A DNA stretch of 64,000 bases. Origin: Patescibacteria group bacterium. GTDB lineage: Bacteria > Patescibacteriota > Patescibacteriia > UBA10025 > JAHIVO01. Every line of letters starts with the position of its first letter. Positions within the stretch are counted from its first letter, which is position 1. The stretch lies in the NCBI GenBank assembly GCA_041666685.1, contig JBAYGJ010000001.1, positions 31,749 to 95,748 of the forward strand. The letters run 5' to 3'. A program made the position numbers and the translations under genes. The notes beneath the pieces are model-generated. The model was not told the origin of the DNA. It saw nothing but the letters and a program-made list of their open reading frames with translations, and did not search any database. Positions 8,184-49,345 of this stretch are shown here, in pieces.

Positions 8184-8627
8184 TTAGTTGTTCGACAGAT
8201 ACGCGCGCAAAATGCGTTTTTCTAGGCGTTGCATTTTTACCGCAGCCGCATTTCTTATATGGTCATGACCAATCAAATGGAGCCACCCATGAATAAGCAA
8301 AATAATAACTTCTTCCCTGAATGAATGGAGTAATCGTTTTGCCTGCCGCCTCGTATATGGTACCGCAATGACGATTTCACCTACATACCCGGTGGAAATC
8401 ATTTCGGCTTTCTTCACGTCCAATTCTGAAAACGAAAGTACATCAGTGGGACGATCAATGTGCCGGTACTGGCGGTTTAAGCGACGACTGACCGCATCGC
8501 TGACAAAAGCGACCGACACCTCAGCATGGCGATACTGAGGATCCTCTTTGGCGGCCACTGCCATGACACGTTTCACCAGCTTCTCATGGACGCCCGACGC
8601 ATAAAGTTGGTTAACCAGGACCCGCAT
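8184..8627 (-). CDS. ybeY: rRNA maturation endoribonuclease YbeY
   Basis: TDVLSF and the HGWLHLIGHDH metal-binding motif. The start overlaps the upstream stop (ATGA). Confidence 0.85.
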   Translation of the reverse strand: MRVLVNQLYASGVHEKLVKRVMAVAAKEDPQYRHAEVSVAFVSDAVSRRLNRQYRHIDRPTDVLSFSELDVKKAEMISTGYVGEIVIAVPYTRRQAKRLLHSFREEVIILLIHGWLHLIGHDHIRNAAAVKMQRLEKRILRAYLSNN

Positions 8628-9784
8628 TAGAGCCGATTGGTTGCGGAATTCAAATTGCTGTTTGTATTTGATGTATTGGTGTTATGGTTCGCGTTGATAT
8701 TGGTATTGGTATTTGTGTTCGTATTCCGATTTGTATTTATGTTGGTTGCCGTATTGGTATTCACCGGCACTACCCCGATCCTGAAACTGCGGTACATCGC
8801 CTGAAATACCGTTTTGTAATTTGCCTGAGCCAGAATATTAATGTTGTAATTAATAAGGTACACTCTGCTCCCGCTGACGAAATATGCCGTGAGTCCATCA
8901 ACGCTCAAAACTCCGGACAAAGTTTTATCCCAATTTGTAACACTCATAATTTTTGACGAGTCGATACCAGGCGACTGGGTGAGGTACCAGTCACGTGCGG
9001 ATAGCCCGGCGGGGTTCTCCTGCACGCTCACCTCGACAAACTCGCCGCTGGCCGTGAACATTTTCCCGCGGGTATTCTGTGGATCGTCTGATAACGCCCA
9101 ACTCGCAGGGTACAGTGTCGAATACCCGTATACACTGTCATAATACGTTTTTATGGCCGCATTTGCCTCGATTTTACCCGTCCCAGCCGGATTGTATCCC
9201 CCGCCGACCTCCAGGCCATCAGAATAACTGTCCCCATCCGTATCGGCTTTATTCGGGTTGGTGCTAAAAATCGTTTCCTCTACGTCAGTCAAACCGTCAC
9301 TGTCGCTGTCCTGGCTGGACACCACTGGAGTTATATTGGTATTTACCGACGTATTTGTGTTATTCACATTAAAAACTGGGAATAAATTCGTATTGCCGGA
9401 CATGTTCGCATTACTGTTCCCGTTGGTGTTTTTATTCGTATTGCCGGACATGTTCGCATTACTGTTCCCGTTGGTGTTTTTATTCGTATTCGAATTAGCA
9501 TTCTGGTTTCCGGCGATATTGCTGTTTGCGTTTTGGTTCGTGACAACGATATTTTGATTAGCATTCGTATTAGCTGATGGACCGAATTTTTTATAGGCAA
9601 AATAACCGGCCACCCCCAGAATCAGTACCACCACAATAATGATCAGCCACAAAAACAATCGGGAGCCGCCACCCGACGAACCGTGATCGTCAATGTGAAA
9701 CTTGGCCGGCATCGTGTACATCTTTACCGGTTTATTGGACATTTGGGAATTGGCAGTTGGAAGTGGCGGTGTTTCAAATGGCAT
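8627..9784 (-). CDS. Single-pass membrane-anchored surface protein with N/T-rich low-complexity regions, thrombospondin-type-3-like Ca-binding repeats and a C-terminal globular domain
   Basis: TM helix LFLWLIIIVVVLILGVAGYFAY. There are (N-x-N) repeats including a perfect 16-aa duplication. DSDSDGLTDVEE and DTDGDSYSDGLE are DxDxDG Ca-binding motifs. There is a GGGYNPAGTGK motif, and the NTNTN tail runs to the C-terminus. Confidence 0.5.
   Translation of the reverse strand: MPFETPPLPTANSQMSNKPVKMYTMPAKFHIDDHGSSGGGSRLFLWLIIIVVVLILGVAGYFAYKKFGPSANTNANQNIVVTNQNANSNIAGNQNANSNTNKNTNGNSNANMSGNTNKNTNGNSNANMSGNTNLFPVFNVNNTNTSVNTNITPVVSSQDSDSDGLTDVEETIFSTNPNKADTDGDSYSDGLEVGGGYNPAGTGKIEANAAIKTYYDSVYGYSTLYPASWALSDDPQNTRGKMFTASGEFVEVSVQENPAGLSARDWYLTQSPGIDSSKIMSVTNWDKTLSGVLSVDGLTAYFVSGSRVYLINYNINILAQANYKTVFQAMYRSFRIGVVPVNTNTATNINTNRNTNTNTNTNINANHNTNTSNTNSNLNSATNRL
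9385..9480. repeat. Perfect 2 x 48-bp tandem repeat inside the 8627..9784 CDS, encoding NKNTNGNSNANMSGNT twice
   Basis: The unit attcgtattgccggacatgttcgcattactgttcccgttggtgttttt occurs twice back-to-back with no mismatch. A degenerate third unit follows. Confidence 0.8.
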
Positions 9785-9796
9785 AGATAGAAATCC

Positions 9797-10438
9797 TTAT
9801 TGGTTCGTATTAGATAGCGTGTTTGTTAAATCATACAATTTCCCGGGGCCGACAGGACTGTACCCATTCTGGACTTCGACACCGTCATCCTTGGCGTCTC
9901 CGTCCGTATCTTTTTTCAACGGATCTGATTTATATACCTTTACTTCTTCCCGGTCAAAAAGTCCGTCGCCGTCAGAGTCAGCTTTCTGCACATCAGTACT
10001 GAGAGATTTTTCCTCTGTATCAGCTAGACCGTCGCCGTCAGTATCAATCAAAGCAGAATTTACCGCGGAAATATTTACCACAACCGGTACGGCATCACTA
10101 TTAACCCCCTGAACCGAATTAGTATTAGTCGTTACCGTATTCGTAGTTTCTTTTGTAAACAATCCGCTCCGCCATGCAGCCATCGCGCCAGCCGCACACA
10201 GTACGACTAACAGCGCTACCCCGGCAATCATGAACCGGCGATTTCCAAAAAACATGCCCCCCGAAGTGCCCGAAACCGCGCCATCCTCCCGCGCGACTGA
10301 TAGGGGCACCACTGGCGATTTAAGTACCGCCGGCCGAACAGCCCGCTTCTTACCCGACGCCGTAACTGCCTTTTTAGCTGCAGCACGGTCTGTTTCCTCA
10401 AAAATATCTTCAACATTTTGTTTCTGGTTTTTCGCCAT
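9797..10438 (-). CDS. Single-pass membrane-anchored surface protein with thrombospondin-type-3-like Ca-binding repeats (paralogous architecture to the 8627..9784 gene)
   Basis: Likely start MAKNQKQ. The ORF track extends it to 10483, overlapping the upstream gene. The TM helix is FMIAGVALLVVLCAAGAMAAW. DTDGDGLADTEE, DSDGDGLFDREE and DTDGDAKDDGVE are DxDxDG motifs. The protein ends with GYSPVGPGK. Confidence 0.5.
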   Translation of the reverse strand: MAKNQKQNVEDIFEETDRAAAKKAVTASGKKRAVRPAVLKSPVVPLSVAREDGAVSGTSGGMFFGNRRFMIAGVALLVVLCAAGAMAAWRSGLFTKETTNTVTTNTNSVQGVNSDAVPVVVNISAVNSALIDTDGDGLADTEEKSLSTDVQKADSDGDGLFDREEVKVYKSDPLKKDTDGDAKDDGVEVQNGYSPVGPGKLYDLTNTLSNTNQ

Positions 10439-10445
10439 ACAACTA

Positions 10446-12056
10446 TTATAATGCTGGTGAAGAGGTATCCTGCGCGATGTCAATCTGACACGAACAGTTC
10501 TGGCCAGTCACTGTCGTCACATTAATCGTTGTAATTGCGCTCGTGGTCGAAGACGTCGCATCATACGCAACTGCATACAACCCTTTCGGCGTTGTCGAAA
10601 TGATATCCGTACATACTTCATGCGTTCCTGTGGGGCAATCAAGTGCCGACAATTCAACTGCCCGGGCGGTTTTCACGAACGGTAGCCGCAGGCCAGACTT
10701 CACCATGGCATATGACTTAATCGGGCTTTGAAGGAAAGTCACCTGACTGACATTGAGAGTACCGGTGAATGTTACAGCTGGCGTTGAGGCGACCGTAGAA
10801 GCGAGAGGTCCGCCCCCACCGCTGCTAAATAGATCAACTTTTGTAAGCGCAACATCGTCGGTGGCAGAGATGCTGTAACTCAATGTGCCGGTGCTGGTAT
10901 AGTATGCGCCATTTGTGGGCTGGTTGATGGTCACCGTCGGGGCGCTTGGTGGTACAGTGACGTTGACTGTCCGTGTCGCCGTAGTAGTCAGTGATGCGCC
11001 ATTGTAGGCGATTGCTTTCAAGGTATGACTACCATTGGTGAGCGACCCCACGTTCAACACCCACGTATAATTATGGCTTCCTAACGGCTGGTCATAAATC
11101 TGGGTATCGCGCGGCATTGATTCCAAATCAAGGTAAAATTCTACTTTTATGATGGCGCTTTCGGGATCCGTCGCATTTGCCACCACAGAATAACTGGCCG
11201 TCGACAGCACAGTCCCATCAGTCGCCGGAGCAGTTATGGAAACCTCCGGTGCAGTTGTATCAGGCGTGGTATTGCTCACCGTAACAGTCACTGCCGTAGA
11301 GGTAGTCGAATTCCCTGCCGCATCCCTGGCGACCGCAGTGAGTGCGTGTGACCCAGATGCGGTTGCGGTCGTATCCCAGCTAACAGAATATGGCGCTGAA
11401 GCATCTTCCGCTCCAAGGTTTAAATTATCGATCTTGAATTGCACTCCGCTCACACCGACAGTGTCAGCCGCAGTTGCATTTATTGAAGTAGTCCCAGTGA
11501 CGCTTGCGCCGTTAGTCGGTACGGTGATTGAAACGGTAGGGGCAGTGGTATCGGAAGTAGTCGTATTGATATTAAAGTTGGCATTACTATTGCCCGTCCC
11601 GACTGTAATAGTCGCGGCCGCAGTTGATACAGTCGGATGACCCAGGGCATCTGCCAGTTGAATATCCACCAGATAGAGCCCATTCCCATTAGCTCCGGTA
11701 TTCCACGTGTTGGCATATACATCATCGCCCGCGGTACCGTCGCTGTGCTTACCGTCATCATACAGCTGTATGATGGCGATAGTCCCTCCGTTATCGCGCC
11801 GGATATTTGCCGTGGCCACACTGATGCCCGAAACGTCAGTGGTTTTTACTGAAATGACCACTGACCCCCCCAGTGCCACTGACGCAGGAGTGGCTGTCGT
11901 GCTTTCCAATGTCGGACCGGCTGTGGCGCCTGCGGTATTGCTGTATACTTCCCCGCTGGGCGTATTGGCCGCGCGGACAAATGTGATCCCCGCGACAGCA
12001 AATATTCCCGCCGCAAAAAGAATTATTAATAATTGTGAAATCTTTTTCATAATCAT
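10446..12056 (-). CDS. Secreted cell-surface protein with multiple bacterial Ig-like (Big-type) domains
   Basis: Signal peptide MIMKKISQLLIILFAAGIFAVAGITFVRA. It has repeated Ig-like modules (VSITVPTNGASVTGTTSINATAADTVGVSGVQFKIDN...HALTAVARDAAGNSTTS). This is the same domain type as the repeats in the giant protein upstream. Confidence 0.6.
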   Translation of the reverse strand: MIMKKISQLLIILFAAGIFAVAGITFVRAANTPSGEVYSNTAGATAGPTLESTTATPASVALGGSVVISVKTTDVSGISVATANIRRDNGGTIAIIQLYDDGKHSDGTAGDDVYANTWNTGANGNGLYLVDIQLADALGHPTVSTAAATITVGTGNSNANFNINTTTSDTTAPTVSITVPTNGASVTGTTSINATAADTVGVSGVQFKIDNLNLGAEDASAPYSVSWDTTATASGSHALTAVARDAAGNSTTSTAVTVTVSNTTPDTTAPEVSITAPATDGTVLSTASYSVVANATDPESAIIKVEFYLDLESMPRDTQIYDQPLGSHNYTWVLNVGSLTNGSHTLKAIAYNGASLTTTATRTVNVTVPPSAPTVTINQPTNGAYYTSTGTLSYSISATDDVALTKVDLFSSGGGGPLASTVASTPAVTFTGTLNVSQVTFLQSPIKSYAMVKSGLRLPFVKTARAVELSALDCPTGTHEVCTDIISTTPKGLYAVAYDATSSTTSAITTINVTTVTGQNCSCQIDIAQDTSSPAL

Positions 12057-12089: not shown

Positions 12090-15000
12090 CTACCTACAGG
12101 CATTCGCATCTTGGCATGGATCGGCGCCCCTGGTAATTGCTTCAACAATACGCTGAATGGCAGGAATCGGTCCTGTCGTCCCCCATGATGAGATATACCT
12201 ATGAATTCCGATCGGCAAACTCGCACCAGCATATAACGTCGTACCATCTGCATATAATGAATACACAGCCTGTTTTCCGGCAATTGTGGTAGATAGCCAC
12301 GTATTCCCGTTATCATTTGAACGGTATACGATGCCATTTGGAGTAGACCCGACAAATATCGCAGTCCCAAATCTTGCAATACTTAAATATGAATTTGCCC
12401 CACCGCTTGGATTACGGTCAGTCCACGTTGCCCCATTATTATTAGTGTAATGGACTAGGCCTAACGCTCCACTGGTCACAACATACAGAGTGCTATTTGC
12501 TTCATTATAATACATATCATTAATGGCCGATTCCGTAGCGGCAAACCTCCCTATATTCGTCCAGGTTACCCCGTCATCAGTTGATCGGAAAACTGCAGGC
12601 CCAGTTGCCGAGCCGGACGTACCGGCATACAAAGCACTCGGCGTGGCAATTAAACTCTCGATCCGCGGATCCGTCACAGAACCCGTCAAAGTCCATGTAT
12701 TTCCCGCACTGAGCGTTGAATACACCGCGCCTCCACCGCCTGCCGCAAAAACTTTTCCGCTCTTATAAGCCAATGGCGATATGGATATATTAAAAGCCGC
12801 GCTCCTGCTCCAGGACTCAGTTCCGCCGTCGCACGTCCTCCAAACATAACCCCGAATTGGACTGTATGCGTTGCCTGATACATACAGACAGGCACCGACA
12901 GGCTGGATATCTTCCAAATTTGTCTGTCCAGCGGGCTGATTTGTGGTCAGTACCCACGAAATTGCATTATTTATGGATTTATACACGACCGCTGCCATGG
13001 AAGTCGTGTTATTTCTGGCAGTAGCGAATAACGCTGTCGGACCGCTGTACGGAGGATTGACAGTGAGCCGAAGTGTTTGTGTATCTGATAGGCCGGTGGA
13101 GTCCGTCGAGGTAAGCGTGATATTATACGTCCCAGCCGTGGTCGGTGTGCCGGTAATACGGCTGCCGCTGAAACTGAGGCCGGCTGGTAGTGGTGCCGCA
13201 GTGAATGTGATCGGCGGCGTGCCACCCGAAGTGATAATCTGGTAGGAATAATAATCACCGACAGACGCGATGCCAGTCAACATACTGATAATCAAAGGGA
13301 CATTGGCCGAGCATTCCAAAGGACATAAATCATTGGACTCTGGCGGAGCGTCGCAGGTCCCGTTGGCATTGCAGATCGGCCGTCCGGGGATATTCTCCAG
13401 CTCAGAGGCATTCATCTGGACATCTCGTGCCTGGATATCCACCCACATCACCGTTTCCTGGTTTGATGTCCATGTCCCGCTGTATCGTCCGGATATATTA
13501 TCGCCGGAAATCCTGCCGAGCGGGATGGAAATGCGCGGAACTAAATCTGTTTCATCGGGATTTTGGACGAGTGCGACTGGAGGTGAGCTCGTATCGTCGA
13601 CGCCGTCAGTGTCGCTGATGTCGGCATAAAAAGTGAACACTGTCCCGACTGCGCCTGTTTCTGGAGTCATAAAGGCATTTTCAATAGTCGGGCCGCCGGG
13701 ACCGCGGACATTATAATTACGTTCAATACTGGTACTGCGGTTACCTCGCGCATCAAGCGCGTCCACCTGGAACGAATGCCAGCCGTCTGAAATCGCCCGG
13801 GTATCCACGACCCACTCTGTCGGCTGGCCTGCCAGGGCTGTCTTACGCAACACATGATCCAGGTAAAAATTTACCCGATTTATTCCATAATTATCCGTCG
13901 CCGTCACCCGGAGGGTAATGGACTGGTCAACAGAAGTCCCCTCATTGGGCGTCGGCGGAGCATCAAACACGACAGTCGGTGCCTGATCGTCGTCCTGAGC
14001 TACATCCACCGGTAAAAATATCGTCGAAGTGGTCACATTACTGGCATCATCAAAGGCATAGGTCGAAACCTGGTGTCCTGCACAGGTCAATCCCGGACTT
14101 AACAGCTGGCATTCGCTGGTCTCATTACATTGGGTCCCGCGCCCATTTGTGACCACGCATCGATCGCCCGACTGCGGACAATCACTGTCGCTGATACACG
14201 CCTGGCCACCGAGTTGGCACTGGCTGGCGCAGACCCCCCTGGACAGGCCGGCCGTACTCCAATTCCAGTCCCAGACGAATGCACACACGCCCGGCGCGCA
14301 GGTAGAATTGTCCGTACATAATGCGTTTGGCGCTACACTACAGTTGCCTTGGGCCCGACGGATACCGTCGCTTTTAAATAGCCCATCCACGTAAAACTTC
14401 ACCTGGTTGACCTGCTTATTGTCCGACGCCACTACCGGCACAGCCACTGTACCGCTCCGCAGACAGATCAGATTATCCGCTGGGGCATAACTGTCTTGGC
14501 ACACCGCGGCAGTATTCGATTGGTCACAGCTAACGTCAAAATTACAACGGGCACCATCAGGGCAGGTATGAACATAATCACATGCCACATCCGGATCGGC
14601 CGGATCTTCTTTCTGACACAACCCCTCGCCGCACCGGCCTTCAATATTATTGAAACTTACCTGTGGAGGAGTGGGATCAAGGTTATCGACATTTATCAGG
14701 ATGGACGTGGTCCCTGTGCGGCCGCCGCTGTCCCTGGCGATCGCAGAAATGGTGTATTGGCCATTGGCGACACGGGTGGAATCCCACGGCGGCGAATACG
14801 AACAACTCAGGGTCGTGCTGGCATTGCCGGAGCACGAATAGCTGTCCCCATTTGAGATATTAATCGTCACGTTATCGACCTGCCGGTTATCCGTAGCCAG
14901 GGCATTGATCTGCACTCCATAGCTGGTCGACGAACGGACACGCAATATCCTGTTACCGCTGTCTGTGATATACAAATAATTTCCGGATATGGCCACATCT

Positions 15001-18000
15001 TCCGGAGCAACAATATTTTCCAGATCCTGCGGTCCGGCATTATTTCCGAAAATAAAGATTTTCCTGGAAAGGTTGGTATCAAGAGCGGAAATGACATTCC
15101 CGGCGTTTTCCGTCACATACACCGTCGATCCGTCAACATGTATCCCGTCAGGGACGTTTAATTGGTTGGGACCATTGCCGTTTATGCCGGTGCCAAAAAC
15201 GGCGCCAGGCACCAGATTTAGGTTGGAGTCCAATTTGAACACCTGGCCGGTGTTCCGTTTGCTGACATACACGTTACCGGCGCTGTCTGTATCGATTCCG
15301 TTCACGCCGTCACTCCCAAAATCATAGTGATGCTCGATGGTATTTGTCACCGGATCGAAAATAACGACTGTCTGGAAATAAATAATTGCTGCAATTTTCC
15401 CGTCCGGGCGTCCGACGGAATGAGTTACGCCAAACTGCGGCAACGCCCCGCCGGTTTCATCCACAGCCCCGAGGTTATAGACCGCCTTTGGCGCCTGGAG
15501 AGGCGTCATGCTCGGATCAAACCTCAAAACCCGCCGGGTGCCCACAGGTGCCGGAGTATACGTTACCAACAGGTCGCCGTTTGAGTGATCCAGGCCGACA
15601 TGCCATGCTATCTGTGAAGAGGGCGATAATCCCAACGCATCAAAATCAAAAGTTCCTAAATCCACGCAACTATCCAGATTGCTGTTGCACCGGCGGAGAT
15701 GCGCCGGATCTTCCCAATAGGTCACATAATAAATATATCCATTGTTAGAAGCCTCAAGGCTATGAATGCCCGCAGTATCCACAGCCTTGTCCGGCAAAAA
15801 CGATATGGTACGGTTGGAAACGGTATCCCCGTCTTTTGGCGATGTAATGGTGACAAACGGATTGGTTGTATCCGGCTGGCCGCTATTGTCGATGCGAACC
15901 GCATATTCCTTGTCCGTCTGATTATCCGCATTATCAAACGCCCGGACCCGGACCGTATGGGCGCCGTCGGAGAACCTAGTTGTATTGAAATCCCAGCTCC
16001 AGATGGCGCTGTCCGTATCAGTAAACGTACGGATACCGTCAACATAATACTCTACCCGGTTTACGCCTGACCCAACGTCTGTCACCGTCGCATTCAGGAC
16101 ACGGGTTCCGCTCACCGCGGTTACGGCATTCTCAACCAGCAAATCGACATCCCCGATGACCGGGCCGACATGGTCAGCAGCTGAACCAGTGACATTATAT
16201 TCATAGTTAAAACACGGACACTGCGCTTCAGTCATACCGACACATTTATCTACTACCGGATCGGCGACCAGATACCACTCCCAATTACCCTCTGCATTAA
16301 CCAATAAATGAACATTTTCCAAATGAGCAAGCAGACTGGCCCGGCTGCCCGTGGCATTGCCCAAATATTGGTAGACAAACGAACCGCCCGGACACTGGTA
16401 TGTTTTTAGCGTTTCATTCCAGCAGGTATTCTGGTCATAGCCCGTGCCGCACAATGTCGGCGGATCCTCCACGATAAACTTATCGTACGGATCGCCCGGC
16501 AAATTGCCGCCGAGTGCCGCCCCAAGCGTCTCCTGCCAGGACGGCCATTTGGACGTGGAAAGCATCTTGACGTATGATCCGCCCTCAAGTTTCGGGAAGT
16601 AACCATTATCGGTGCGGTAGATCATCAGTTTCTCGTAGATGGACGACAGGTCATTGATCCGCCGCATATCGCGCTGGACCTGCTCCTTTTCGGTCTGTGT
16701 GATGTTGATGCTGAATTCCCAATTCTCAATCATCCGGTTGTAGATGCTGACTGTTTCGTCAGACGCGCCCTCGTTATATGAAATCAAATATATATTCGGA
16801 TACAGCCGGCCGAGATTGCCTGGATTCCAGGCGGCGACATACACGCTCCGTCCGGCCCGTACTGCGGCGTACCCATCCACTGTCAGATCCTGGGGTTGTG
16901 GCGCAGCCGGTCCAAACTGGCCATAGTACCAATCGTGGGGCGACTGGTTGCTTTCGTTCTCGTAGACCCGGATGCCGATAGCGTCGTCCGTATCCGCACG
17001 GGTGAAGAAAAATTCCCTGATCAGCTCGTTTTTCTTGTTGCCGAATTGATAGCTCCCCGCTTTGACAATCACGTCGCCAGTCGGCGCCAGTGATGGCAAG
17101 GCGCCGGGATCACGGCAGTACGAGATAGAAAAATTCGTGACAGTATCAGTATATGGGAACGTGTCTGCCGGCACAGAGAAGGGGTTCGGCCACGGGTGTT
17201 CGCACACATTGACCGTCACTCGAGCAGAAGATGTTTTTGTACCGGTGAAGAATTCCGGATCAAATGAGGCATTGACCGTCGTCCGGCCGTTCTTGTTCTG
17301 GGCCGTCAGCCATCTGGAAAAATCCCCCAATGGAGTCAGTTGGGCGATCGACGTATCGCCAATTGAAAAAGTAGCCGTCGAATTGACGGGATTATTATTT
17401 TTATCATATGGTATCGCCTCCACTATATGTTGGTTGCCATTAACAGCACCCAAGTCGTCACTGCAATCTGTCGGTGCGGTACACGTAAATATATCAGGTG
17501 GGTTATAAAATGGGGTATCAGCATTTACGAAAGTCCAGATAACGTGGTCAATCTGACAGATGGACGCCAACGGATCCACATCCCATTCAAATAACCGCCA
17601 GTTGTCCACAATGTTTGTCCAGGTGATGCCCCGCTCACTTTTTATAATATCGGTGCGCAAATTAATATCTATCGCCGTGCCAACATGCAGGGCCACAGTC
17701 GGCGAAACAATGAATCCGTTGATGATTTTCTTAACTGTAAACGCAACTGGCGCAAGGTTTTCGGTCAGGGTGACAGAGTCACCAACGACGACCGAAGTCA
17801 TGTCAATATCCTGGTCAAACTTGATGATAAACGAGTTATTCAAACAGATGAGCGGCGAGTCCGGCGGAACCACGTCAGGCTTGATGGAGACAAACTGCGG
17901 CCGGGCATAACAACAAGTACTCTTGCCGCACGCGATCGTCCCGGTCCCGTCCTCATCGCACTGGGCATCGCCGGTCGCGGTATCCTCATAATCACACCCG

Positions 18001-21000
18001 CAATATAATCCCCGATTGCCGCTGACGCATGCTCCCTGATCAGCAGTACACTTCAGGCCATTTTTATTGAGCTGTACCAGATTGGTCCCGTCACCGTTGA
18101 CATCCGTCGTGCAGCAGGTCAGGCAGGGCGAAGATGCTGGTGGCGGATATACCCGACTCATCACAAGAGGATCCCCCTGGCTATCCGGAGCTAAATGCCC
18201 GTCAGGATCAATGCATCGATACGAACTCGTACCTGAAACAGTCTTCCCTAGCTGACATAACGTCGCATCACGATGCTCCTGGTCATCCAATTTGCATGGA
18301 TCGCCTGGCCCACCTGAACTGCAGGCAGCGTTATCAGCCTGGCATTCGTGATCCAGGCAGCAGCCGGAACTGCATTCTCCGGGGTTATCGCAATAAATTC
18401 CGATATTAATGCCATTGGACGGGCAATACGCCCCAGTGCCATCGCCGACAGAAATCCTGGCCGGACCGGGGTCAGTGTTAACGGGGAGCGTTGCGTCAGA
18501 AAATGTTGTCCCGTCAGCGCTGGCAGTACCGTCCGGGGAATCAATATAACCCGCGCCCTGCGTAAACTCGGCTTTTACCGGTAGCGCGTCGTGTGTAGTC
18601 AGGTTGAACCCCATGAAATCCACCGGGCTGCCGATTCTTTGCACTAACGGAGTAATTGAACACAAACCCGGTACGGCGATATTATTGCATGTGTCATTGA
18701 TATCAAAAGTGATATTTTGGTGGCTGTCATCAATATTGCTCAGCCCGGCCGCAGTTCGGACTTCCACAGAATTCGTTCCCAGGCCGACAGTTTCAGGAAT
18801 GGTAGTGATGATCTGACTGTCCTTCCATGGAGCCGCGCAGAGGAACAACCCTTCATTCGCCACATCGAACAATACCTTGCTTGTGCCGGCCACATAACTC
18901 CCGAAATAGCACCCGTTAATGGTAATAGTCTGGCCGCGCGGACCGCCGGGGACAGGAGGAGGACTGATACTGTTGATCACCGGCGTGCACCGGTTTATAG
19001 TTAAATCGCACACACTGCCGACGCACTGCCCCTCTTTCGCACAATCAAAACCAACATCGCAATAATCCAGAATCACACTCAGTTTGGCCTGGCCGGTCTT
19101 CCCTGCCGTATCAGCCTGTATATATGTATAGCCCGGCGCGACGTCAGAAACGGCTGTCGCGGTTGCTTGGTACGGCGGCTGGGGAGGTGCTGACGCGACA
19201 GTCGCTATGGCCAAGACAGTAGATACCCAATTCCAGCTATAACTGGCCGGATTCATAAAAGTACAGTTAGGACCGAGCGGTACCGAGCTGTAATCCTGGG
19301 TGGCGCCGATAGTGGTCAGAATCCTATTTGACGGTGTCACCAGGACACGGCTAACTGGACAGGCGTCCGTACCTGTCTGCGTCTTCACAGTCCACGCATA
19401 ATCATTCACCATCTTCACATTCGTGATACTGCGGACTTCCTTGCTGATAGTCACTCTATAATAGTGGTCTGGGGTCAGGTCTGCTGTCGGTATCATCCGG
19501 AAACTCGTCTTCCCTGCATCATCGGAGGCAGAAAAATTTACATCTGGTGGGGTGATATCAACCGGTACCGGGTTCGTGCAGGTACTATCATTGGCGCAGT
19601 CATACAGGCCAATAGTGCTGCTATCCAATGTCGCGTGGTTCATCAACGTGGTAAATGTCGCGCCGAATACCGCATTCAGGCAGACATTTGTCGTGCCCTT
19701 ATACGGGTTTGGCGACGGGATGGTGTCAGGCAAGCACGCGCCACCGTCACAGTCAGTAGGATCATTGCAACTATCACCGGCATTGGCCGAGGCTGCATCG
19801 CATGTGAAACTGCAGGCTGTAGTTTCATATACTTTCGGCACACCGCCGCACGGTACTTCAAAAGGCAGGGCATTGCTCCCCCCGTTCACGTTTCGGGCAC
19901 TAACCTTATATGGGTTCTCGGCATTATCAAGATCGGGCGTTGTCACTGTGATCTGGCCATCTGTCCAGTTCGCAAGTGGCGGCACTACTGAAACTGGAAG
20001 ATCAAGTCCCAGAACAAAATTCACGCTACGGTCAGCGGGCGGGTCGAATGTCTCGCCAGTCAATGTCAGCCCCACGCCTTGGACGCCGCATACCGGCTGG
20101 ACCTGGCACAATCCCGGACCGGCCGCCTCATTGGTATAAACAAATGTAACAATATTGCTTCGTGTCCCGTCTGATTTGACCAACTGAACGCCAACCTGAC
20201 TGTTTGCTGGGCAATTAGACCACTTCCCTTCTGGTGCTGTGGCGGGATCGCAAACAGTGGCAATGAGTGAGAGGTCAGGCACTTTTACAATTGCCGATGT
20301 ATTGGTCCAGGTGGCATCACAGGGCGGGTCGGGGGGGGCTGCAGCTAATATTTCATCTCCATTCGACATATCACGGAAAAAAACCTGCCCGGCAATGCAG
20401 TCGTCCGGATCAACACAGAATCCGGCATTTGAATCGTTGCGTTTGATTACCGAAACATACTGGCCAATGCCGCCATGCGGCTGGTCATTAAGCCCGGACA
20501 CTTCGCCGATCTGCGGACTGGTCACGTCGAAATCTGACGCGTTGCTGTCGGTGACACAGCGCCCGCCGGGACAATCCGCCGCTTCATTCAGTTTGGTACA
20601 TGTCCGATTGTCGTTAACGCCGCCTTCGCATACGCCCGGATCGATCGTGACTTTCACGCCGCCGTCTTTTGCGCCATTGGACGGGATGATGCCGCCGATA
20701 TTCACCGGTCCACCAGGCACCCTGGTCTGAATAGCGGTCCCGTTCCACGAGACGTTGCAATTCTGGCTTGGCCAGTTCGCAACACTAAAACAATTCCCGC
20801 TGTCGAGCACGCCGTTATTGAACGCCACATCGCCGCCAATCCCGAAATTAGTGCCATTAATCTGTATCGCCGGGTCAGCCGGGGTGCTGTACCGTCCAAA
20901 ACTCGGGACAATATCAACTATCTCGGGAATACATCGCGTATTGGTTGAATCTGTATCAGCGGTAAAATTCCACGGTTCAGTGGGGAAGGTGGGGTTAGTG

Positions 21001-22418
21001 CTTGCTGGAACTTCGGACAGGAAATTATCCCCTCCAACAGTGCCATCCTCAGTGCCGTTTTCATTGCCGTCCAGGTGGTTCTTGCAGACATCCATAATAC
21101 CCTTACCTGGATCTTTGTAATCAGGGCTGTTTTGGTCATTGGTGCCGGCAATAAGTTCGACACTGTACTGGTCGCCGGTCGCCATCGGTTCGAAGGGCCT
21201 AGTCGTAAACAGCGTGACACCGCTGGAAACGCTGAACGGAGATCGCAACCGCTGGTCAGTGCCCGCACTCGTATTGCGGAATTTTACTGTAGCCAGACAG
21301 GTCTCGGGAGCCGGACAGTCACCATCGATCAGGCAGGATATTTTGGCCACCGAACAGTAGCCGGCATGGATCGAGGAGGCGCGCATCTTATTTGAAAACC
21401 GTTCCTGGATCGGCGAATTCAGACAAACATTTGTAGCGTTGTCATCCGGATATATTTGCGTGACCGTGGGCGGGTCGGTTAAGTTTGTATTCCCAGTCGT
21501 AAAAGTCCAGATACTGGCCTCCGTATCTCGCAACGGCGGGTCGGTTTCCAGCACCGTCTCATTGATCTCGACACGGTAGGTGGTATTGAATAAATAATTT
21601 GCGGTTGGGTCAAATTCAAGGATAGATGCGTCAGCCGGCGCCAGACTCCATACCCCAGCGACCCTATCGCCGACACATTGGGACGTCCCGGCATCGCAAA
21701 CTCCAGAACTGCATTCATTGTCGTTGGCGCATGGGCCACCAGCACCCTGTCTAGCCTCATGGACATAAACCCCGACATTAGGCTCGACAATAGTTGTCGG
21801 ATCGAAATTACCATTGTATTGTGCCTGGATCATGCTGCAAACCGGAATATTAGATTCATTAAATCCAGGATCAACCCATTTCCGGTGGAAAGTTTCAGTA
21901 TCTTCACCGAGACAACGCATTGGATTATTTGTCGGGTCGTATACAGAAAATGCCGTACCGGCCGCATTACAGTCATAGCAGCCAAGTTCGTCACCGGGGC
22001 CACAAATCGTCACACCGGGACCATTAATTATGTCATTCAACCGGCCGATAATGAAGGTCACGATCGCCCAGGCCAACATGATGATCACCAAACCGATAAC
22101 CGCATCCCGGAGGATGCGTTTGGCTTTCCTGATCTTTTCCTCATTACCCGCTGCGGTCAGCCAGACAAAACCGCCGTACATGATGATGATAACCGCCACG
22201 AGTCCGAGCAGGCCTAGCGCCCACTGGAGAATCTTTATCACCGTAGACTCCAGGTCGGCGGTCCCTAGCCCGAGGGTGCTGCCGACATTCTGGTCGACAG
22301 TAACAGCCAGCGACGGCGAAGATGTGAGCCAGAAAGCAGCCACCAGAAAACCGGCGAACACCACCAAGCCCAACAGGGCTCCCAGAAAAAATGTATTTTT
22401 ATTTGTACGCGCCCTCAT
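12090..22418 (-). CDS. Giant (3442 aa) cell-surface protein: N-terminal signal/TM plus VirB2/TrbC-like (CPR T4SS-pilin-like) two-helix hairpin, Cys-rich modules, multiple Big-type Ig domains, He_PIG-type Ig domain, NHL beta-propeller, C-terminal BNR/Asp-box propeller
   Basis: It is a single uninterrupted 10.3-kb ORF. The N-terminus is MRARTNKNTFFLGALLGLVVFAGFLVAAF (signal-like), followed by ILQWALGLLGLVAVIIIMYGGFVWLTAAGNEEKIRKAKRILRDAVIGLVIIMLAWAIV (helix-loop-helix pilin-like). It has the NHL repeats NVYVSKRNTGQVFKLD and YLYITDSGNRILRV (~14940-15640), Ig-like modules (VTATDNYGINRVNFYLD), a He_PIG module (PPITFTAAPLPAGLSFSGSRITGTPTTAGTYNITL, ~13020-13270), and the BNR motifs STDDGVTWTN, NNNGATWTD and SNDNGNTWLS (12090-13000). 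Confidence 0.75.
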   Translation of the reverse strand: MRARTNKNTFFLGALLGLVVFAGFLVAAFWLTSSPSLAVTVDQNVGSTLGLGTADLESTVIKILQWALGLLGLVAVIIIMYGGFVWLTAAGNEEKIRKAKRILRDAVIGLVIIMLAWAIVTFIIGRLNDIINGPGVTICGPGDELGCYDCNAAGTAFSVYDPTNNPMRCLGEDTETFHRKWVDPGFNESNIPVCSMIQAQYNGNFDPTTIVEPNVGVYVHEARQGAGGPCANDNECSSGVCDAGTSQCVGDRVAGVWSLAPADASILEFDPTANYLFNTTYRVEINETVLETDPPLRDTEASIWTFTTGNTNLTDPPTVTQIYPDDNATNVCLNSPIQERFSNKMRASSIHAGYCSVAKISCLIDGDCPAPETCLATVKFRNTSAGTDQRLRSPFSVSSGVTLFTTRPFEPMATGDQYSVELIAGTNDQNSPDYKDPGKGIMDVCKNHLDGNENGTEDGTVGGDNFLSEVPASTNPTFPTEPWNFTADTDSTNTRCIPEIVDIVPSFGRYSTPADPAIQINGTNFGIGGDVAFNNGVLDSGNCFSVANWPSQNCNVSWNGTAIQTRVPGGPVNIGGIIPSNGAKDGGVKVTIDPGVCEGGVNDNRTCTKLNEAADCPGGRCVTDSNASDFDVTSPQIGEVSGLNDQPHGGIGQYVSVIKRNDSNAGFCVDPDDCIAGQVFFRDMSNGDEILAAAPPDPPCDATWTNTSAIVKVPDLSLIATVCDPATAPEGKWSNCPANSQVGVQLVKSDGTRSNIVTFVYTNEAAGPGLCQVQPVCGVQGVGLTLTGETFDPPADRSVNFVLGLDLPVSVVPPLANWTDGQITVTTPDLDNAENPYKVSARNVNGGSNALPFEVPCGGVPKVYETTACSFTCDAASANAGDSCNDPTDCDGGACLPDTIPSPNPYKGTTNVCLNAVFGATFTTLMNHATLDSSTIGLYDCANDSTCTNPVPVDITPPDVNFSASDDAGKTSFRMIPTADLTPDHYYRVTISKEVRSITNVKMVNDYAWTVKTQTGTDACPVSRVLVTPSNRILTTIGATQDYSSVPLGPNCTFMNPASYSWNWVSTVLAIATVASAPPQPPYQATATAVSDVAPGYTYIQADTAGKTGQAKLSVILDYCDVGFDCAKEGQCVGSVCDLTINRCTPVINSISPPPVPGGPRGQTITINGCYFGSYVAGTSKVLFDVANEGLFLCAAPWKDSQIITTIPETVGLGTNSVEVRTAAGLSNIDDSHQNITFDINDTCNNIAVPGLCSITPLVQRIGSPVDFMGFNLTTHDALPVKAEFTQGAGYIDSPDGTASADGTTFSDATLPVNTDPGPARISVGDGTGAYCPSNGINIGIYCDNPGECSSGCCLDHECQADNAACSSGGPGDPCKLDDQEHRDATLCQLGKTVSGTSSYRCIDPDGHLAPDSQGDPLVMSRVYPPPASSPCLTCCTTDVNGDGTNLVQLNKNGLKCTADQGACVSGNRGLYCGCDYEDTATGDAQCDEDGTGTIACGKSTCCYARPQFVSIKPDVVPPDSPLICLNNSFIIKFDQDIDMTSVVVGDSVTLTENLAPVAFTVKKIINGFIVSPTVALHVGTAIDINLRTDIIKSERGITWTNIVDNWRLFEWDVDPLASICQIDHVIWTFVNADTPFYNPPDIFTCTAPTDCSDDLGAVNGNQHIVEAIPYDKNNNPVNSTATFSIGDTSIAQLTPLGDFSRWLTAQNKNGRTTVNASFDPEFFTGTKTSSARVTVNVCEHPWPNPFSVPADTFPYTDTVTNFSISYCRDPGALPSLAPTGDVIVKAGSYQFGNKKNELIREFFFTRADTDDAIGIRVYENESNQSPHDWYYGQFGPAAPQPQDLTVDGYAAVRAGRSVYVAAWNPGNLGRLYPNIYLISYNEGASDETVSIYNRMIENWEFSINITQTEKEQVQRDMRRINDLSSIYEKLMIYRTDNGYFPKLEGGSYVKMLSTSKWPSWQETLGAALGGNLPGDPYDKFIVEDPPTLCGTGYDQNTCWNETLKTYQCPGGSFVYQYLGNATGSRASLLAHLENVHLLVNAEGNWEWYLVADPVVDKCVGMTEAQCPCFNYEYNVTGSAADHVGPVIGDVDLLVENAVTAVSGTRVLNATVTDVGSGVNRVEYYVDGIRTFTDTDSAIWSWDFNTTRFSDGAHTVRVRAFDNADNQTDKEYAVRIDNSGQPDTTNPFVTITSPKDGDTVSNRTISFLPDKAVDTAGIHSLEASNNGYIYYVTYWEDPAHLRRCNSNLDSCVDLGTFDFDALGLSPSSQIAWHVGLDHSNGDLLVTYTPAPVGTRRVLRFDPSMTPLQAPKAVYNLGAVDETGGALPQFGVTHSVGRPDGKIAAIIYFQTVVIFDPVTNTIEHHYDFGSDGVNGIDTDSAGNVYVSKRNTGQVFKLDSNLNLVPGAVFGTGINGNGPNQLNVPDGIHVDGSTVYVTENAGNVISALDTNLSRKIFIFGNNAGPQDLENIVAPEDVAISGNYLYITDSGNRILRVRSSTSYGVQINALATDNRQVDNVTINISNGDSYSCSGNASTTLSCSYSPPWDSTRVANGQYTISAIARDSGGRTGTTSILINVDNLDPTPPQVSFNNIEGRCGEGLCQKEDPADPDVACDYVHTCPDGARCNFDVSCDQSNTAAVCQDSYAPADNLICLRSGTVAVPVVASDNKQVNQVKFYVDGLFKSDGIRRAQGNCSVAPNALCTDNSTCAPGVCAFVWDWNWSTAGLSRGVCASQCQLGGQACISDSDCPQSGDRCVVTNGRGTQCNETSECQLLSPGLTCAGHQVSTYAFDDASNVTTSTIFLPVDVAQDDDQAPTVVFDAPPTPNEGTSVDQSITLRVTATDNYGINRVNFYLDHVLRKTALAGQPTEWVVDTRAISDGWHSFQVDALDARGNRSTSIERNYNVRGPGGPTIENAFMTPETGAVGTVFTFYADISDTDGVDDTSSPPVALVQNPDETDLVPRISIPLGRISGDNISGRYSGTWTSNQETVMWVDIQARDVQMNASELENIPGRPICNANGTCDAPPESNDLCPLECSANVPLIISMLTGIASVGDYYSYQIITSGGTPPITFTAAPLPAGLSFSGSRITGTPTTAGTYNITLTSTDSTGLSDTQTLRLTVNPPYSGPTALFATARNNTTSMAAVVYKSINNAISWVLTTNQPAGQTNLEDIQPVGACLYVSGNAYSPIRGYVWRTCDGGTESWSRSAAFNISISPLAYKSGKVFAAGGGGAVYSTLSAGNTWTLTGSVTDPRIESLIATPSALYAGTSGSATGPAVFRSTDDGVTWTNIGRFAATESAINDMYYNEANSTLYVVTSGALGLVHYTNNNGATWTDRNPSGGANSYLSIARFGTAIFVGSTPNGIVYRSNDNGNTWLSTTIAGKQAVYSLYADGTTLYAGASLPIGIHRYISSWGTTGPIPAIQRIVEAITRGADPCQDANACR

Positions 22419-25139: not shown

Positions 25140-25799
25140 TTATATAGATAAATTGTATATGGGACTGACGAAATGCTGGAATTCAGAAAACGGATAGACC
25201 CGCAGCCAGGCCCGGCCGACGATATCTTTTCTGGGTAACGGCCCAAAGATGCGGGAATCCAGGCTGACCGGACGGTTGTCGCCCATAACGAAATATTGAC
25301 CATCCGGAATCCGTGTCACTGTTAAATTATTGGTAAGGGTGCCCTCAGCCAAATACGGTTCCGGAAGCACGACGCCATCCGGATATTGCTTATTGATAAT
25401 AGTAATCTCCCCATTAACGGATTTGATCGTTTCGCCCGGCAGTCCAATAATCCGCTTAATAAAAAATTCACTGGTCCGGTTCGGATTGCGCATCACCAGG
25501 ACGTCTCCCCGCTGCGGATCAGTGAATCGGTAGGTGATTTCATCGATGATCAGGTATTCATTATCGTGAAAATTCGGCTCCATCGAGGCGCCGCGGACAT
25601 AAAACGGCTGAAACAAAAAATACCGGACCGGGATGATGATAGCGAGGGCGATCAGGACGATCTTGACCAGTTCAAGAACAAAACTGCGAGGAGAATTGGC
25701 AAATGACGGAGGATTCAGCTTAACATCCCTCTGTTCCTGCTTAACCTCTGCTTTGGCTTTCTTATTGTCGATATCGTAGTCGCTTACCGTCAGTCTCAT
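25140..25799 (-). CDS. lepB: Signal peptidase I
   Basis: N-terminal TM helix. Catalytic Ser box GASMEPN, Lys box and the GDNRPVSLDSR box. Confidence 0.85.
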   Translation of the reverse strand: MRLTVSDYDIDNKKAKAEVKQEQRDVKLNPPSFANSPRSFVLELVKIVLIALAIIIPVRYFLFQPFYVRGASMEPNFHDNEYLIIDEITYRFTDPQRGDVLVMRNPNRTSEFFIKRIIGLPGETIKSVNGEITIINKQYPDGVVLPEPYLAEGTLTNNLTVTRIPDGQYFVMGDNRPVSLDSRIFGPLPRKDIVGRAWLRVYPFSEFQHFVSPIYNLSI

Positions 25800-25809: not shown

Positions 25810-26433
25810 TTAGTAGGTTGGTGGGGCAAAATGAGTAAAATCTTCAAACGGCCAGACCCGAAGCCATGCCCGGCCGATAATCTGCTTTTTCGTAATCGTG
25901 CCAAAGATGCGGGAATCCAGGCTAACCGGACGGTTGTCGCCCATGACGTAATACATATTCGGACCGAGCGTAGTTGTCACATTGCCGTTTGTCAGGATTC
26001 CCTCCCCCAAATACGCTTCATTAAGTTCCGTTTCGGCACCACTCGGGGAAACAATGTACACATGCTGATCTTTGACCTCTACGGTTTCATTGGGCAGGCC
26101 AATAATCCGCTTGATCAATGCGTCGCGTTCGCTGGGTATTTTCAGCACCACCACATCTCCACGCTGAGGCTCGGAAAATCGGTACGTAATCTCATCAATC
26201 AACAAATACTGAAAATCGGAAAAATTCGGTTCCATCGACGCGCCCTCCACATAATACGGCTGAAAAAGGAAATAACGGACCGGGATGACGATCACCAACG
26301 CGATTAGAACGATCTTGACCAGCTCAACGACAAACGCCCGTGGTGATGAAGCGAAACCCGGCTCGACAGCCGCCCGCTTCTCACTTGTCGCTTTCTTATT
26401 GCTGATGTCATACTCCCCGACCGATAATCGCAT
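25810..26433 (-). CDS. lepB: Signal peptidase I (tandem paralog)
   Basis: Same architecture (GASMEPN; GDNRPVSLDSR). It is about 55% identical to the neighbour. The likely start MRLSVGEYDISNKK at 26433 parallels the paralog's MRLTVSDYDIDNKK. The ORF track uses a TTG at 26448. Confidence 0.8.
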   Translation of the reverse strand: MRLSVGEYDISNKKATSEKRAAVEPGFASSPRAFVVELVKIVLIALVIVIPVRYFLFQPYYVEGASMEPNFSDFQYLLIDEITYRFSEPQRGDVVVLKIPSERDALIKRIIGLPNETVEVKDQHVYIVSPSGAETELNEAYLGEGILTNGNVTTTLGPNMYYVMGDNRPVSLDSRIFGTITKKQIIGRAWLRVWPFEDFTHFAPPTY

Positions 26434-26674
26434 AATGGAAATATCCAATTAGTATATTGAATGGTGGACGATGAAGGAGTTTCCGCCAGATGCGGACCCC
26501 GCCCTACTTTAAAATTTTTATTTATCGTGACGGGGGAACCTTCAACTTTTCGGATGTCCCGCTCTATCCGGAGCATTCGGGCGGTACCCGCATCTTCATG
26601 CCCACCTCGGCTCTTCACGAAGGAAAGCTGGTTGTTTCGTTCGTGGCCTTGGCCCAACTGAGCTTCTATTGGTG

Positions 26675-32281: not shown

Positions 32282-32288
32282 AAAACAT

Positions 32289-37175: not shown

Positions 37176-37543
37176 AGCGCCGGTTTACAGACACGGCGCT
37201 CATGCCTATTTCACCACATATTCAATAGCGATTGCTTGTCGCCATACCCCTCTCACCGGCAATGCTGCAACGGCGTACGGGCCCATCGCCAGCCCAGGAA
37301 AGTGCACAAACCGACTGCCGCGAGCGTCAGACCAACCACGAGATACAGTACCGCCAGCACGACAAATAAGAATTTCACTAAAACCATCTTACACATATCC
37401 ACCTCGCACTGAATGAAAGAGCAATTGCACGACTACTGACATATTCTATCACTAACGCCAAATAGTCAAGCCACTTGCCAATAATGCTTCTCTGGCTTAC
37501 AATGGACAAAGAAGACCTTCCTACAAATGAAAGGTCTATTTTT

Positions 37544-48583: not shown

Positions 48584-49345
48584 TTATTGTGCCAGTGCGG
48601 CATCAATGGCGGACTTGAAACTGGCATATGGCAAGGCGCCGGACACGAGCGTGCCATTGATAAATGTAGCGGGCGTACCATTGACCCCATACCCCTGACC
48701 CTCTGTCTGGTCACCGTTGACTCGGGATGTCGACGTACCTTTATCAAGGCAATCGTTGAATTTTGTAGTGTTCAAACCGAGATCCTTGGCATACCCTTTC
48801 AGATCGGTAACGGTAAGTGCGGACTGATTTGCAAACAATTTGTCGTGCATTTCCCAGAATTTATCCTGGGCCCCGGCGCATTCTGCCGCTTCTGCCGATT
48901 TTTGGGCGTTCGGATGGATGCTCGTCAAAGGGAAATAGCGGTATATTAATTTTACCTTTCCCTTATAATCAGTCATGATTTGGGTTAGCGTCGTGTTTAA
49001 CGTTTCGCAGTACGGACATTCAAAATCAGAGTATTCCACGAGCGTCACTGTTGCATTAGTATCACCTTTAACGTGATCGGTCGCCTTGACCTGAATGTCA
49101 ACTTTTGTCGGAGCAGTGTTTGTGTTAGCGGCCGCAACCGTATTGGTATTTGCCTGGGCAGCCGTATTGGTATTAGTACCCTCTTCCCCATTAATTTTTG
49201 TACGGAGAAGCGAATACGTCATGATAAATGCGACCAAAGCGGTCACGGTGATGCCGGCCAAGATACCGGTAATAAATGCCATCCGCGGCGGCGTCTTGAA
49301 AATTACCGACTGCGGTTTTTCGTCAAAACTTTTCATGTCAGACAT
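48584..49345 (-). CDS. DsbA-family thiol:disulfide oxidoreductase, membrane-anchored (CPYC)
   Basis: N-terminal TM helix and T/N-rich linker. Thioredoxin fold with FECPYC and the cis-Pro region. Confidence 0.75.
   Translation of the reverse strand: MSDMKSFDEKPQSVIFKTPPRMAFITGILAGITVTALVAFIMTYSLLRTKINGEEGTNTNTAAQANTNTVAAANTNTAPTKVDIQVKATDHVKGDTNATVTLVEYSDFECPYCETLNTTLTQIMTDYKGKVKLIYRYFPLTSIHPNAQKSAEAAECAGAQDKFWEMHDKLFANQSALTVTDLKGYAKDLGLNTTKFNDCLDKGTSTSRVNGDQTEGQGYGVNGTPATFINGTLVSGALPYASFKSAIDAALAQ

Follow-up and report, generated by a model that had tools for sequence, protein, structure and literature searches.

Patescibacteria, a group otherwise called the Candidate Phyla Radiation (CPR), account for a large part of bacterial diversity, and those in culture live attached to host cells. 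For the one species that is genetically tractable, the T4SS (type IV secretion system) and its VirB2-like pilins are indispensable for epibiotic growth. The pilin array of the Southlakia epibionticum T4SS locus is essential (PMC10633639, PMC12102498), and the CPR T4SS and its pilins are needed for epibiotic growth, the pilus itself being unusual for monoderm cells (PMC10633639, PMC12857230). The CPR T4SS is related to the class of conjugation systems of wall-less and monoderm bacteria, and a survey of 3,035 Patescibacteria genomes found no PrgB-like adhesin and no T4SS adhesin (PMC12102498). The gene described here lies in a stretch of 64,000 nucleotides from a Patescibacteria group bacterium (NCBI GenBank assembly GCA_041666685.1, contig JBAYGJ010000001.1, positions 31,749 to 95,748 of the forward strand), hereafter termed the window. 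It encodes a putative surface protein of 3,442 residues, termed the giant, which, judged from its sequence, begins with a full CPR VirB2-like pilin of family PF18895 and continues into some 3,300 residues of adhesin-like modules. A fusion of a pilin with a giant protein is not described in published accounts of the CPR T4SS (PMC12102498, PMC12857230, PMC10633639), of giant CPR proteins (PMC8080830) or of giant genes (10.1101/2023.11.21.568195). The architecture of this fusion would surprise a specialist in T4SS or CPR biology.

The conjugative pilins VirB2 (Ti), TrbC (RP4) and TraA (F) are generally known to display a two-helix hairpin with a basic loop, a long signal-peptidase-I leader and both termini outside, and in these respects they resemble the giant. 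Both termini lie on the same, outer side of the membrane, as the head-to-tail cyclisation of VirB2 and TrbC implies, and a C-terminal extension is thus topologically allowed. To our knowledge, VirB2, TrbC and TraA belong to diderm bacteria with an outer-membrane channel and are never found with large domains. The Patescibacteria PF18895 pilins share with the giant the signal-peptidase site, the two helices, the GG..W.T..GNEE loop and the AWAIV motif. Unlike the giant, they are free-standing proteins of ~100-140 residues, often arrayed or located beside virB4, whereas the giant is a single copy in a housekeeping operon with no T4SS gene in the 64-kb window. The pilin-like protein Mbov_0395 of a Mycoplasma integrative and conjugative element (ICE; family NF045849) matches residues 57-125 of the giant base, but represents a small mobile-element protein of 80 positions. 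PilB of Streptococcus sanguinis (PMC8179133) displays the same design, an N-terminal polymerising pilin followed by a C-terminal adhesive module, which equips a filament directly with an adhesin, although it belongs to an unrelated pilin superfamily with a prepilin peptidase class III signal and one hydrophobic helix, and the graft in the giant is ~10 times larger. The giant membrane proteins of Vampirococcus lugosii, with 1,392-4,163 residues (PMC8080830), exemplify large surface adhesins with immunoglobulin (Ig) repeats in episymbiotic or predatory CPR bacteria and are similar to the giant in size, in their Ig-like, PKD-type and propeller modules, in their predicted position at the surface and in their presumed role in host recognition, but no T4SS pilin is reported at their start. 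Among T4SS-associated adhesins, PrgB has an LPXTG anchor and VirB5 forms a small subunit of its own, in contrast with the giant, which has no C-terminal anchor or sorting signal.

The giant gene extends over positions 12090..22418 on the minus strand, with its stop codon at 12090-12092. An earlier note on this DNA, drawn up from the sequence alone, had reported an uninterrupted open reading frame (ORF) over ~16% of the window, to which the strand is added here; ORF listing and translation bear this out, with an ATG start, 3,442 codons and zero internal stops, a run whose chance in random codons is ~(61/64)^3442, roughly 1e-72 by simple arithmetic. The sequence is of the metagenome type and the region forms two ORFs in a distant relative (L010), points that would suit a chimeric assembly or the joining of a pilin gene and a large secreted-protein gene through sequencing error. 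Such an artefact, a concern already raised in the earlier note, is extremely improbable and was rejected. Full-length collinear orthologues with the same fusion are present in several independent assemblies (L004, L006, L014, P0121-P0125); the surrounding gene order is conserved in several assemblies; the family counts 103 representatives; and the pilin module is not followed by any signal peptide. As orthologues, synteny and the missing ectodomain signal peptide agree, a chimeric assembly or accidental gene fusion is practically excluded, and sequence comparison effectively refutes the artefact.

The N-terminus of the giant comprises a predicted signal peptide of residues 1-38 (22305..22418, minus strand), delineated by alignment with free pilins, hydropathy and AlphaFold2, and a mature VirB2-like pilin module of residues 39-131 (22026..22304, minus strand). 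The leader ends at ...SPSLA/VTVD, a putative site of the signal peptidase I type, which lines up with the A-x-A/(Q)VT site in free pilins and where cleavage would occur. The module presents an extracellular N-terminal segment (LGLGTADLESTV), transmembrane (TM) helix 1, a basic cytoplasmic loop (GNEEKIRKAKRILRD) and TM helix 2, and residues 77-115 contain the motif quoted in the earlier note, IIIMYGGFVWLTAAGNEEKIRKAKRILRDAVIGLVIIML. A Kyte-Doolittle scan of the whole protein identified three hydrophobic segments only (scan windows starting at residues 7-19, 58-74 and 101-113), all within the first 131 residues and interpreted as the signal peptide and two TM helices. The AlphaFold2 model, based on 70 aligned sequences, displays helices at residues 8-32, 54-88 and 93-132, with a predicted local distance difference test (pLDDT) score of 87-91 for the hairpin. 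Hydropathy and AlphaFold2 both confirm the previously proposed arrangement of a signal-peptide helix and two hydrophobic helices around a short basic loop.

Profile searches support the assignment of this module. PF18895 (T4SS_pilin), which the earlier note had named, proved to be a real match at twice its gathering cut-off of 26.6 bits, scoring 53.0 bits in the full protein (E 3.7e-14; residues 59-123, nucleotides 22050-22244, minus strand, against profile positions 7-71 of 71). Scanned alone, residues 1-140 reached 58.5 bits. The likeness to VirB2/TrbC holds only in part, as PF04956 remained below its cut-off of 27.9 bits (20.4 bits, E 6e-4, for residues 1-140; 11.8 bits for the full protein) while its alignment spans profile positions 11-98 of 98; the base is a remote homolog only of the PF04956 pilins. 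The NCBIfam model NF045849 (Mbov_0395 family, Mycoplasma ICE pilin-like conjugal transfer protein; curated cut-off of 40 bits) aligned through positions 10-78 of 80, with 44.1 bits when residues 1-140 were scanned alone and 37.1 bits, under the cut-off, in the full-protein scan. Through this match, the module may be connected with the conjugation systems found in wall-less or monoderm bacteria.

The best 120 relatives of residues 1-140 (55-69% identity) are nearly all Patescibacteria PF18895 proteins of ~117 residues, which some sources name 'pilin' or 'VirB2 component'; two proteins, of 201 and 217 residues, are the exceptions in length. Residues 1-131 align end to end with the free 117-residue Patescibacteria pilins, with the signal-peptidase site and both helices in register, and the alignment includes the A-x-A/VTVD site, the extracellular LGLGTADLESTV segment and the GG-x-W-x-T-x-x-GNEE loop. 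In alignments A1 and A2, made with 69 pilins, identity is 47-60% and 18 invariant columns are kept. The free pilins end ~8 residues past helix 2, precisely where the giant carries on. These residues are classified, from sequence, as a full member of PF18895, although the giant lacks the small free-standing size usual in this family (~100-140 residues). An ordinary signal peptide plus one TM, the outcome that would refute the proposal according to the earlier note, does not agree with the PF18895 match, the NF045849 score of residues 1-140 alone and the full-length alignment to free CPR pilins. A type IV (prepilin) N-terminus was rejected on the basis of the signal peptidase I-type leader and the two-helix hairpin, and no class III signal peptide with a G/F-T-L-x-E prepilin motif was found in any frame of the window.

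The same architecture recurs widely. Residues 1-600 were searched against 1.84 billion cluster representatives, and the family counts refer to the best 150 representatives of 50%-identity clusters, 149 of which were used for residue coverage. The search revealed dozens of proteins of 1,000-3,500 residues whose alignment begins at their own N-terminus, runs through the pilin and continues past it. Exactly one pilin module, starting within the first 80 residues, is present in 103 of the 118 proteins with at least 600 residues, as detected with a hidden Markov model (HMM) derived from free pilins. P0121 is collinear over residues 1-3123 (54% identity), and P0123 and P0124 over residues 1-2201. 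An independent metagenome-assembled genome (MAG), L004, encodes an orthologue of 3,727 residues (54% identity, collinear over residues 1-3010) that also ends in a He_PIG domain and a BNR-like propeller, while the orthologue in L003, 86% identical, is interrupted by a contig end. Synteny is kept in L003, L004, L005, L006, L010 (Uhrbacteria) and L014 (GCA_049325535.1, on a contig of 1.15 Mb), with the common gene order signal peptidase I-HisRS-HIT-S21-YqeY-giant-Big_7-two TSP3-YbeY-DAGK-FtsA-FtsZ. The earlier description of the giant as not being a standard annotated architecture is correct in that no specific annotation exists (NCBI labels one orthologue 'Ig-like domain-containing protein'), but the architecture is common in metagenomes and recurrent. 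The giant is a member of a widespread, conserved and vertically inherited family, present in databases but unrecognised.

Two loci of this family present unusual gene structures. In the Uhrbacteria MAG (L010:6594-18821), an ORF of 625 residues bearing the pilin and an ORF of >3,400 residues are separated by one stop, for which a genuine split, a pseudogene or an error in sequencing could account. In L007:423-10305, two large paralogous ORFs are arranged in tandem.

The mature pilin module is the best-conserved region of the giant, with 82, 66, 71, 66 and 68% identity to orthologues, followed by the head domain described below (74-48%) and by most of the remaining ectodomain (36-60%). The consensus of 103 divergent giants approximates that of the free pilins; the GG, W, T, G, AK, G and I positions are retained in at least 90% of these giants, and the extracellular LGLGTADL segment is conserved too. 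Assembly GCA_964628855.1 encodes a giant orthologue (L003) as well as a free pilin (P0005), whose mature regions share 73% identity, and the giant P0273 is 62% identical to the free pilin P0018, both probably from one genome. These identities between giant and free pilin in shared assemblies match those between orthologues across genomes (65-66%). For 93 of the 103 giants and 121 of the 122 free pilins, the closest sequence belongs to the same kind, such that the two form largely separate groups, which is better explained by an old fusion under shared constraint than by repeated recent fusions.

These data bear on the main rival explanation of the base, in which the hairpin derives from a pilin but now serves as a stable two-helix anchor in the membrane and as an export signal, making the giant an adhesin or envelope fibre fixed in the cytoplasmic membrane with no T4SS or pilus link. 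The gene and its orthologues occupy a housekeeping operon-like block together with other surface proteins and no T4SS genes, PF18895 modules are found on proteins of various intermediate sizes and in tandem repeats, as a general-purpose membrane module might be, and the ectodomain begins ~10 residues past TM2, at the membrane surface. However, a plain anchor would not need the free-pilin signature and the extracellular N-terminal segment kept in this best-conserved module, the surface proteins encoded nearby have no more than a single TM or a signal peptide, and a 62-73% identical free paralogue exists alongside the giant. A function restricted to anchoring is regarded as possible, although less likely than not, and the sequence data speak for a base that retains some pilin-specific role.

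Beyond the module, the ~3,300 residues of the giant are hydrophilic. Hydropathy revealed no hydrophobic segment after residue 131, the C-terminus being ...RGADPCQDANACR, and an LPXTG or other C-terminal anchor, as in cell-wall adhesins of the PrgB type, was rejected because a C-terminal hydrophobic segment is lacking. Neither hydropathy nor the junction alignment identified a signal peptide belonging to the ectodomain itself. The juxtamembrane region, residues 132-430 (21129..22025, minus strand), comprises a short Gly-rich linker, a conserved Cys knot (C..G....C..C) and two Big_5 Ig-like domains; residues 200-400 are common to ~100 of the 149 representatives, and no second signal peptide or obvious cleavage motif was found in residues 132-430.

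The structure of this junction is relevant to another alternative, in which the pilin module would act as an export or targeting leader that is cut off, releasing the ectodomain to the envelope, an S-layer or the host surface. The maturation of TrbC and VirB2 is generally known to involve C-terminal trimming and cyclisation, the point at which free pilins stop coincides exactly with the start of the extension, a Gly-rich linker follows TM2, and the head domain is also found as free secreted proteins. In contrast, the 102 aligned proteins (the window protein and 101 members) display no conserved cleavage motif at the junction, no C-terminal or other anchor would hold a released fibre of 3,300 residues, and no TraF-like maturation peptidase is encoded within the window. 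Release of the ectodomain is considered improbable.

The family 'head' domain, residues 1801-2110 (16089..17018, minus strand), was delineated from conservation across the family and from an AlphaFold2 model that displays two parts (predicted template modelling score, pTM, of 0.79). Sub-domain 1, residues ~1801-1900 (16719-17018, minus strand), presents a PsbP/DcrB/PA0094-like β fold, and sub-domain 2, residues ~1905-2080 (16179-16706, minus strand), a long helix and a small sheet. Residues 1700-2100 are shared by ~80 of the 149 representatives, and among the 79 proteins with a head, 42 end at most 25 residues after it. The family archetype therefore consists of pilin, stalk and head, with the ~1,300 residues past this core being lineage-variable. 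The core spans ~2,100 residues, closing with the ~300-residue head, and the window protein and its close kin carry the ~1,300 extra residues (Big_7, NHL-like propeller, Cys-rich block, He_PIG and BNR propeller). Among the matches listed, the head also occurs in free secreted proteins of ~300 residues (P0271, P0272) and once with an inserted CBM_4_9 domain (set P0270-P0272).

No Pfam or NCBIfam model covers the head domain. From the model, sub-domain 2 may be type IV pilin- or pseudopilin-like, lacking the hydrophobic α1-N helix, an assignment for which the chances appear evenly balanced. The motif RD..R..DL..I...L..Y....G.(Y/F)P ... LP.DP ... Y.Y ... L.A.LE agrees with a pilin-like reading. 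T2SSG (PF08334; threshold of 21) scored 13.6-13.8 bits (E 0.06-0.07) in sub-domain 2 and was the only recurrent Pfam family, detected in 5 of 22 head homologues, all sub-threshold (best E 0.022). A Foldseek search of the head model against the PDB gave nothing significant and the pilin-like fold was not confirmed, a head-domain profile had no significant match among PDB sequences, and no type IV prepilin gene with which to compare this profile was found in the window and 13 further loci. A type IV pilin-like fold in the head may hint at cross-talk with type IV pili. CPR cells also need type IV pili for host binding.

Between the juxtamembrane region and the head extends a disulfide-rich stalk, residues 431-1800 (17019..21128, minus strand), defined by Pfam matches and Cys count and collinear with P0121, P0123 and P0124. 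It comprises a Big_5 domain at residues ~899-1010, TIG-like segments below threshold at ~773-854 and ~1146-1222, and Cys-rich stretches without a family match. The lineage-variable distal region, residues 2111-3442 (12093..16088, minus strand), was defined from Pfam and PDB sequence matches. It comprises Big_7 and Big_13 Ig domains (best stretches 2102-2158, 2501-2559 and 2823-2885), an NHL-like β-propeller at residues ~2340-2640 (14499-15401, minus strand), a Cys-rich block with 19 Cys within residues 2601-2800, a He_PIG domain at residues 3045-3121 (13056-13286, minus strand) and a C-terminal BNR/DUF6242-type propeller at residues ~3130-3442 (12093-13031, minus strand). The region is kept in the close orthologue L004, while fewer than 10 of the 149 representatives share residues 2300-3200 and none anything beyond 3200.

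The list of modules in the earlier note stands for the Big-type Ig domains, He_PIG and the BNR-type propeller, all above cut-off (Big_5, 60.9 bits; Big_7, 80.2 bits; He_PIG, 45.2 bits; Big_13, 32.3 bits; DUF6242, 30.2 bits with a cut-off of 29), and for the Cys-rich character, with 114 Cys in the giant. The NHL propeller remained below threshold (NHL, 14.6 bits; LVIVD, 19.4 bits), as did TIG and Sortilin-Vps10, and its residues matched designed 'Pizza' propellers of the PDB weakly (E about 0.008). Apart from these, the whole protein matched nothing among PDB sequences, segment 1780-2120 giving noise only. Two genes encoding DsbA-like thioredoxin-fold proteins (48584-49345 and 49442-50164, minus strand), which adjoin lgt, fit the extracytoplasmic disulfide need of a 114-Cys ectodomain.

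Taking the observed homology of the base, its topology-compatible features and the conservation, recurrence and synteny of the fusion together, the giant is tentatively proposed to be a 'modular' VirB2-type pilin, a reading judged slightly short of an even chance. It would consist of a complete Patescibacteria pilin with a ~3,300-residue adhesin-like C-terminal fibre for host or surface attachment, its base probably being recruited to a T4SS or its pilus. The protein would be exported by the Sec pathway and signal peptidase I would cut off residues 1-38. The two-helix hairpin would span the cytoplasmic membrane, its ends exposed on the outside and its basic loop facing the cytoplasm, as does a T4SS pilin in the membrane pool, and because both ends lie outside, the ectodomain would be outside the cell from the start. 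The fibre would present, in order, the disulfide-rich Ig-like stalk, the conserved PsbP/DcrB-like and pilin-like head and the lineage-variable propeller and Ig modules in a distal position, plausibly reaching about 100 nm when fully extended. It would attach to a host or surface, the variable tip setting specificity. A T4SS would recognise the pilin base, which would co-assemble with the free 117-residue paralogue or dock next to it. The fibre would thus be brought to the T4SS portal or into a pilus composed mainly of that paralogue, as a rare subunit or as the first one, at the tip. The fusion would be feasible in monoderm CPR cells since their pilus needs no outer-membrane channel. The boldest form of this proposal, a true modular VirB2-type pilin that a T4SS lifts from the membrane into the pilus as tip or rare subunit, with the free 117-residue paralogue as shaft and a pilus-borne ~100-nm adhesin as the result, is rather unlikely.

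Several observations weigh against a modular pilin. Foldseek comparison of the AlphaFold2 hairpin with the PDB gave no match with E <= 0.001 and no conjugative pilin (VirB2, TraA) in the top 50, a helical hairpin being non-specific; the pilin profile had 0 matches among PDB sequences; and the high identity of the TM helices is partly a composition effect. We know of no CPR T4SS pilus with such a subunit and of no precedent for a 3,300-residue appendage on a tightly packed VirB2-type filament subunit. The 64-kb window contains no VirB4, VirB6 or VirD4 and no second or free pilin. Orthologues (e.g. L014) and the closest free pilins are likewise surrounded by housekeeping genes, and no T4SS gene is encoded within 10 kb of them. 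T4SS genes occur widely among Patescibacteria, and a pilin lies near virB4 in 1,135 of 1,948 assemblies (PMC12102498), so that a position beside virB4 is no strict mark of the family. As this corresponds to only ~58% of assemblies, the absence of T4SS genes from the window is weak evidence either way.

The pilin-adhesin family provides a concrete, testable candidate for the host contact of the essential CPR T4SS. If the boldest form of the proposal, with a pilus-borne adhesin, is true, the giant would be the missing attachment factor of this system and the first T4SS pilus adhesin that is covalently part of a pilin. The family also widens the 'modular pilin' idea from type IV pili to conjugation-type pilins, in a fusion that may be restricted to monoderms. 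Simple VirB2 HMM surveys may count giants as ordinary pilins.

The closest free 117-residue pilins have a conserved housekeeping position of their own, DnaB ... pilin ... AsnRS/AspRS-like (L001:256-3997; L002:6768-10354; L013:10001-10354). At two free-pilin loci, the pilin gene lies just downstream of a gene for an 850-residue Big_5/FG-GAP surface protein, an unfused adjacency that recurs. Tandem PF18895 chains, with 2-8 modules per polypeptide (e.g. 8 modules in 820 residues), are displayed by P0145, P0147, P0150, P0168, P0187, P0189, P0217, P0225, P0233, P0237 and P0268. P0150 is encoded inside an array of 16 consecutive pilin genes (L015:5145-14393), exceeding the 2-11 described previously (PMC12102498); VirB4 is absent within 10 kb of this array, and a solute-binding-protein gene is located just upstream, as is also the case near the L012 pilins.

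Downstream of the giant, a gene encoding a 536-residue signal-peptide protein with three Big_7 domains (10446..12056, minus strand) starts 33 nt past the giant stop and also trails the giant in L006 and L014, being a probable operon partner. No convincing terminator was detected between the two genes in a scan that was not enriched over shuffles, which lends weak support to co-transcription. Upstream of the S21 gene, the scan gave its best promoter-like site (11/12 matches; 23336-23307, minus strand), again without enrichment over shuffles. Two single-TM surface proteins with bacterial TSP3-type Asp-rich repeats follow (8627..10483, minus strand, with genes at 9797-10483 and 8627-9784) and are conserved members of the downstream cluster, found in the same order in L014 and partly in L007. 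Upstream of the giant by ~3 kb, and within the synteny block, two signal peptidase I (Peptidase_S26) genes are arranged in tandem (25140-25799 and 25810-26448, minus strand), compared with one copy in L014; conjugative pilin leaders are signal peptidase I substrates, and the proximity may be a coincidence.

The genes for a PilT-like T2SSE protein (31208-32281, plus strand), PilM (32154-33350, plus strand) and DprA (37475-38635) are present as the earlier note had reported, but are type IV pilus and competence genes, uninformative on a VirB2-type pilin. A functional link to PilT, PilM and DprA on the basis of distance was rejected, as they are syntenic housekeeping neighbours. The PilM start is probably located further downstream, since the PilT-like ORF overlaps the listed PilM ORF by 128 nt. 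The PilT-like ATPase displays a modest T2SSE match (E 3.7e-15), yet is 91-92% identical to its L003 and L004 orthologues, above the conservation of HisRS.

Four of the related assemblies, L003, L005, L006 and L007 (CAZVMV01, CAZGDO01, CAZQBL01 and CAYTAV01), are Third Party Annotation (TPA) metagenome entries labelled 'uncultured Gammaproteobacteria bacterium'. They are gene-for-gene syntenic with the Patescibacteria window and contain PF18895 proteins, and these organism labels look wrong. Elsewhere in the window, a small cobalamin theme is observed in this reduced genome, comprising a protein with MerR helix-turn-helix (HTH) and B12-binding domains in a CarH/LitR-like architecture (62627-63481, plus strand), and a BtuR/CobO corrinoid adenosyltransferase together with a ribonucleotide reductase that adjoins NrdR (1587-2132 and 2148-4448, minus strand).

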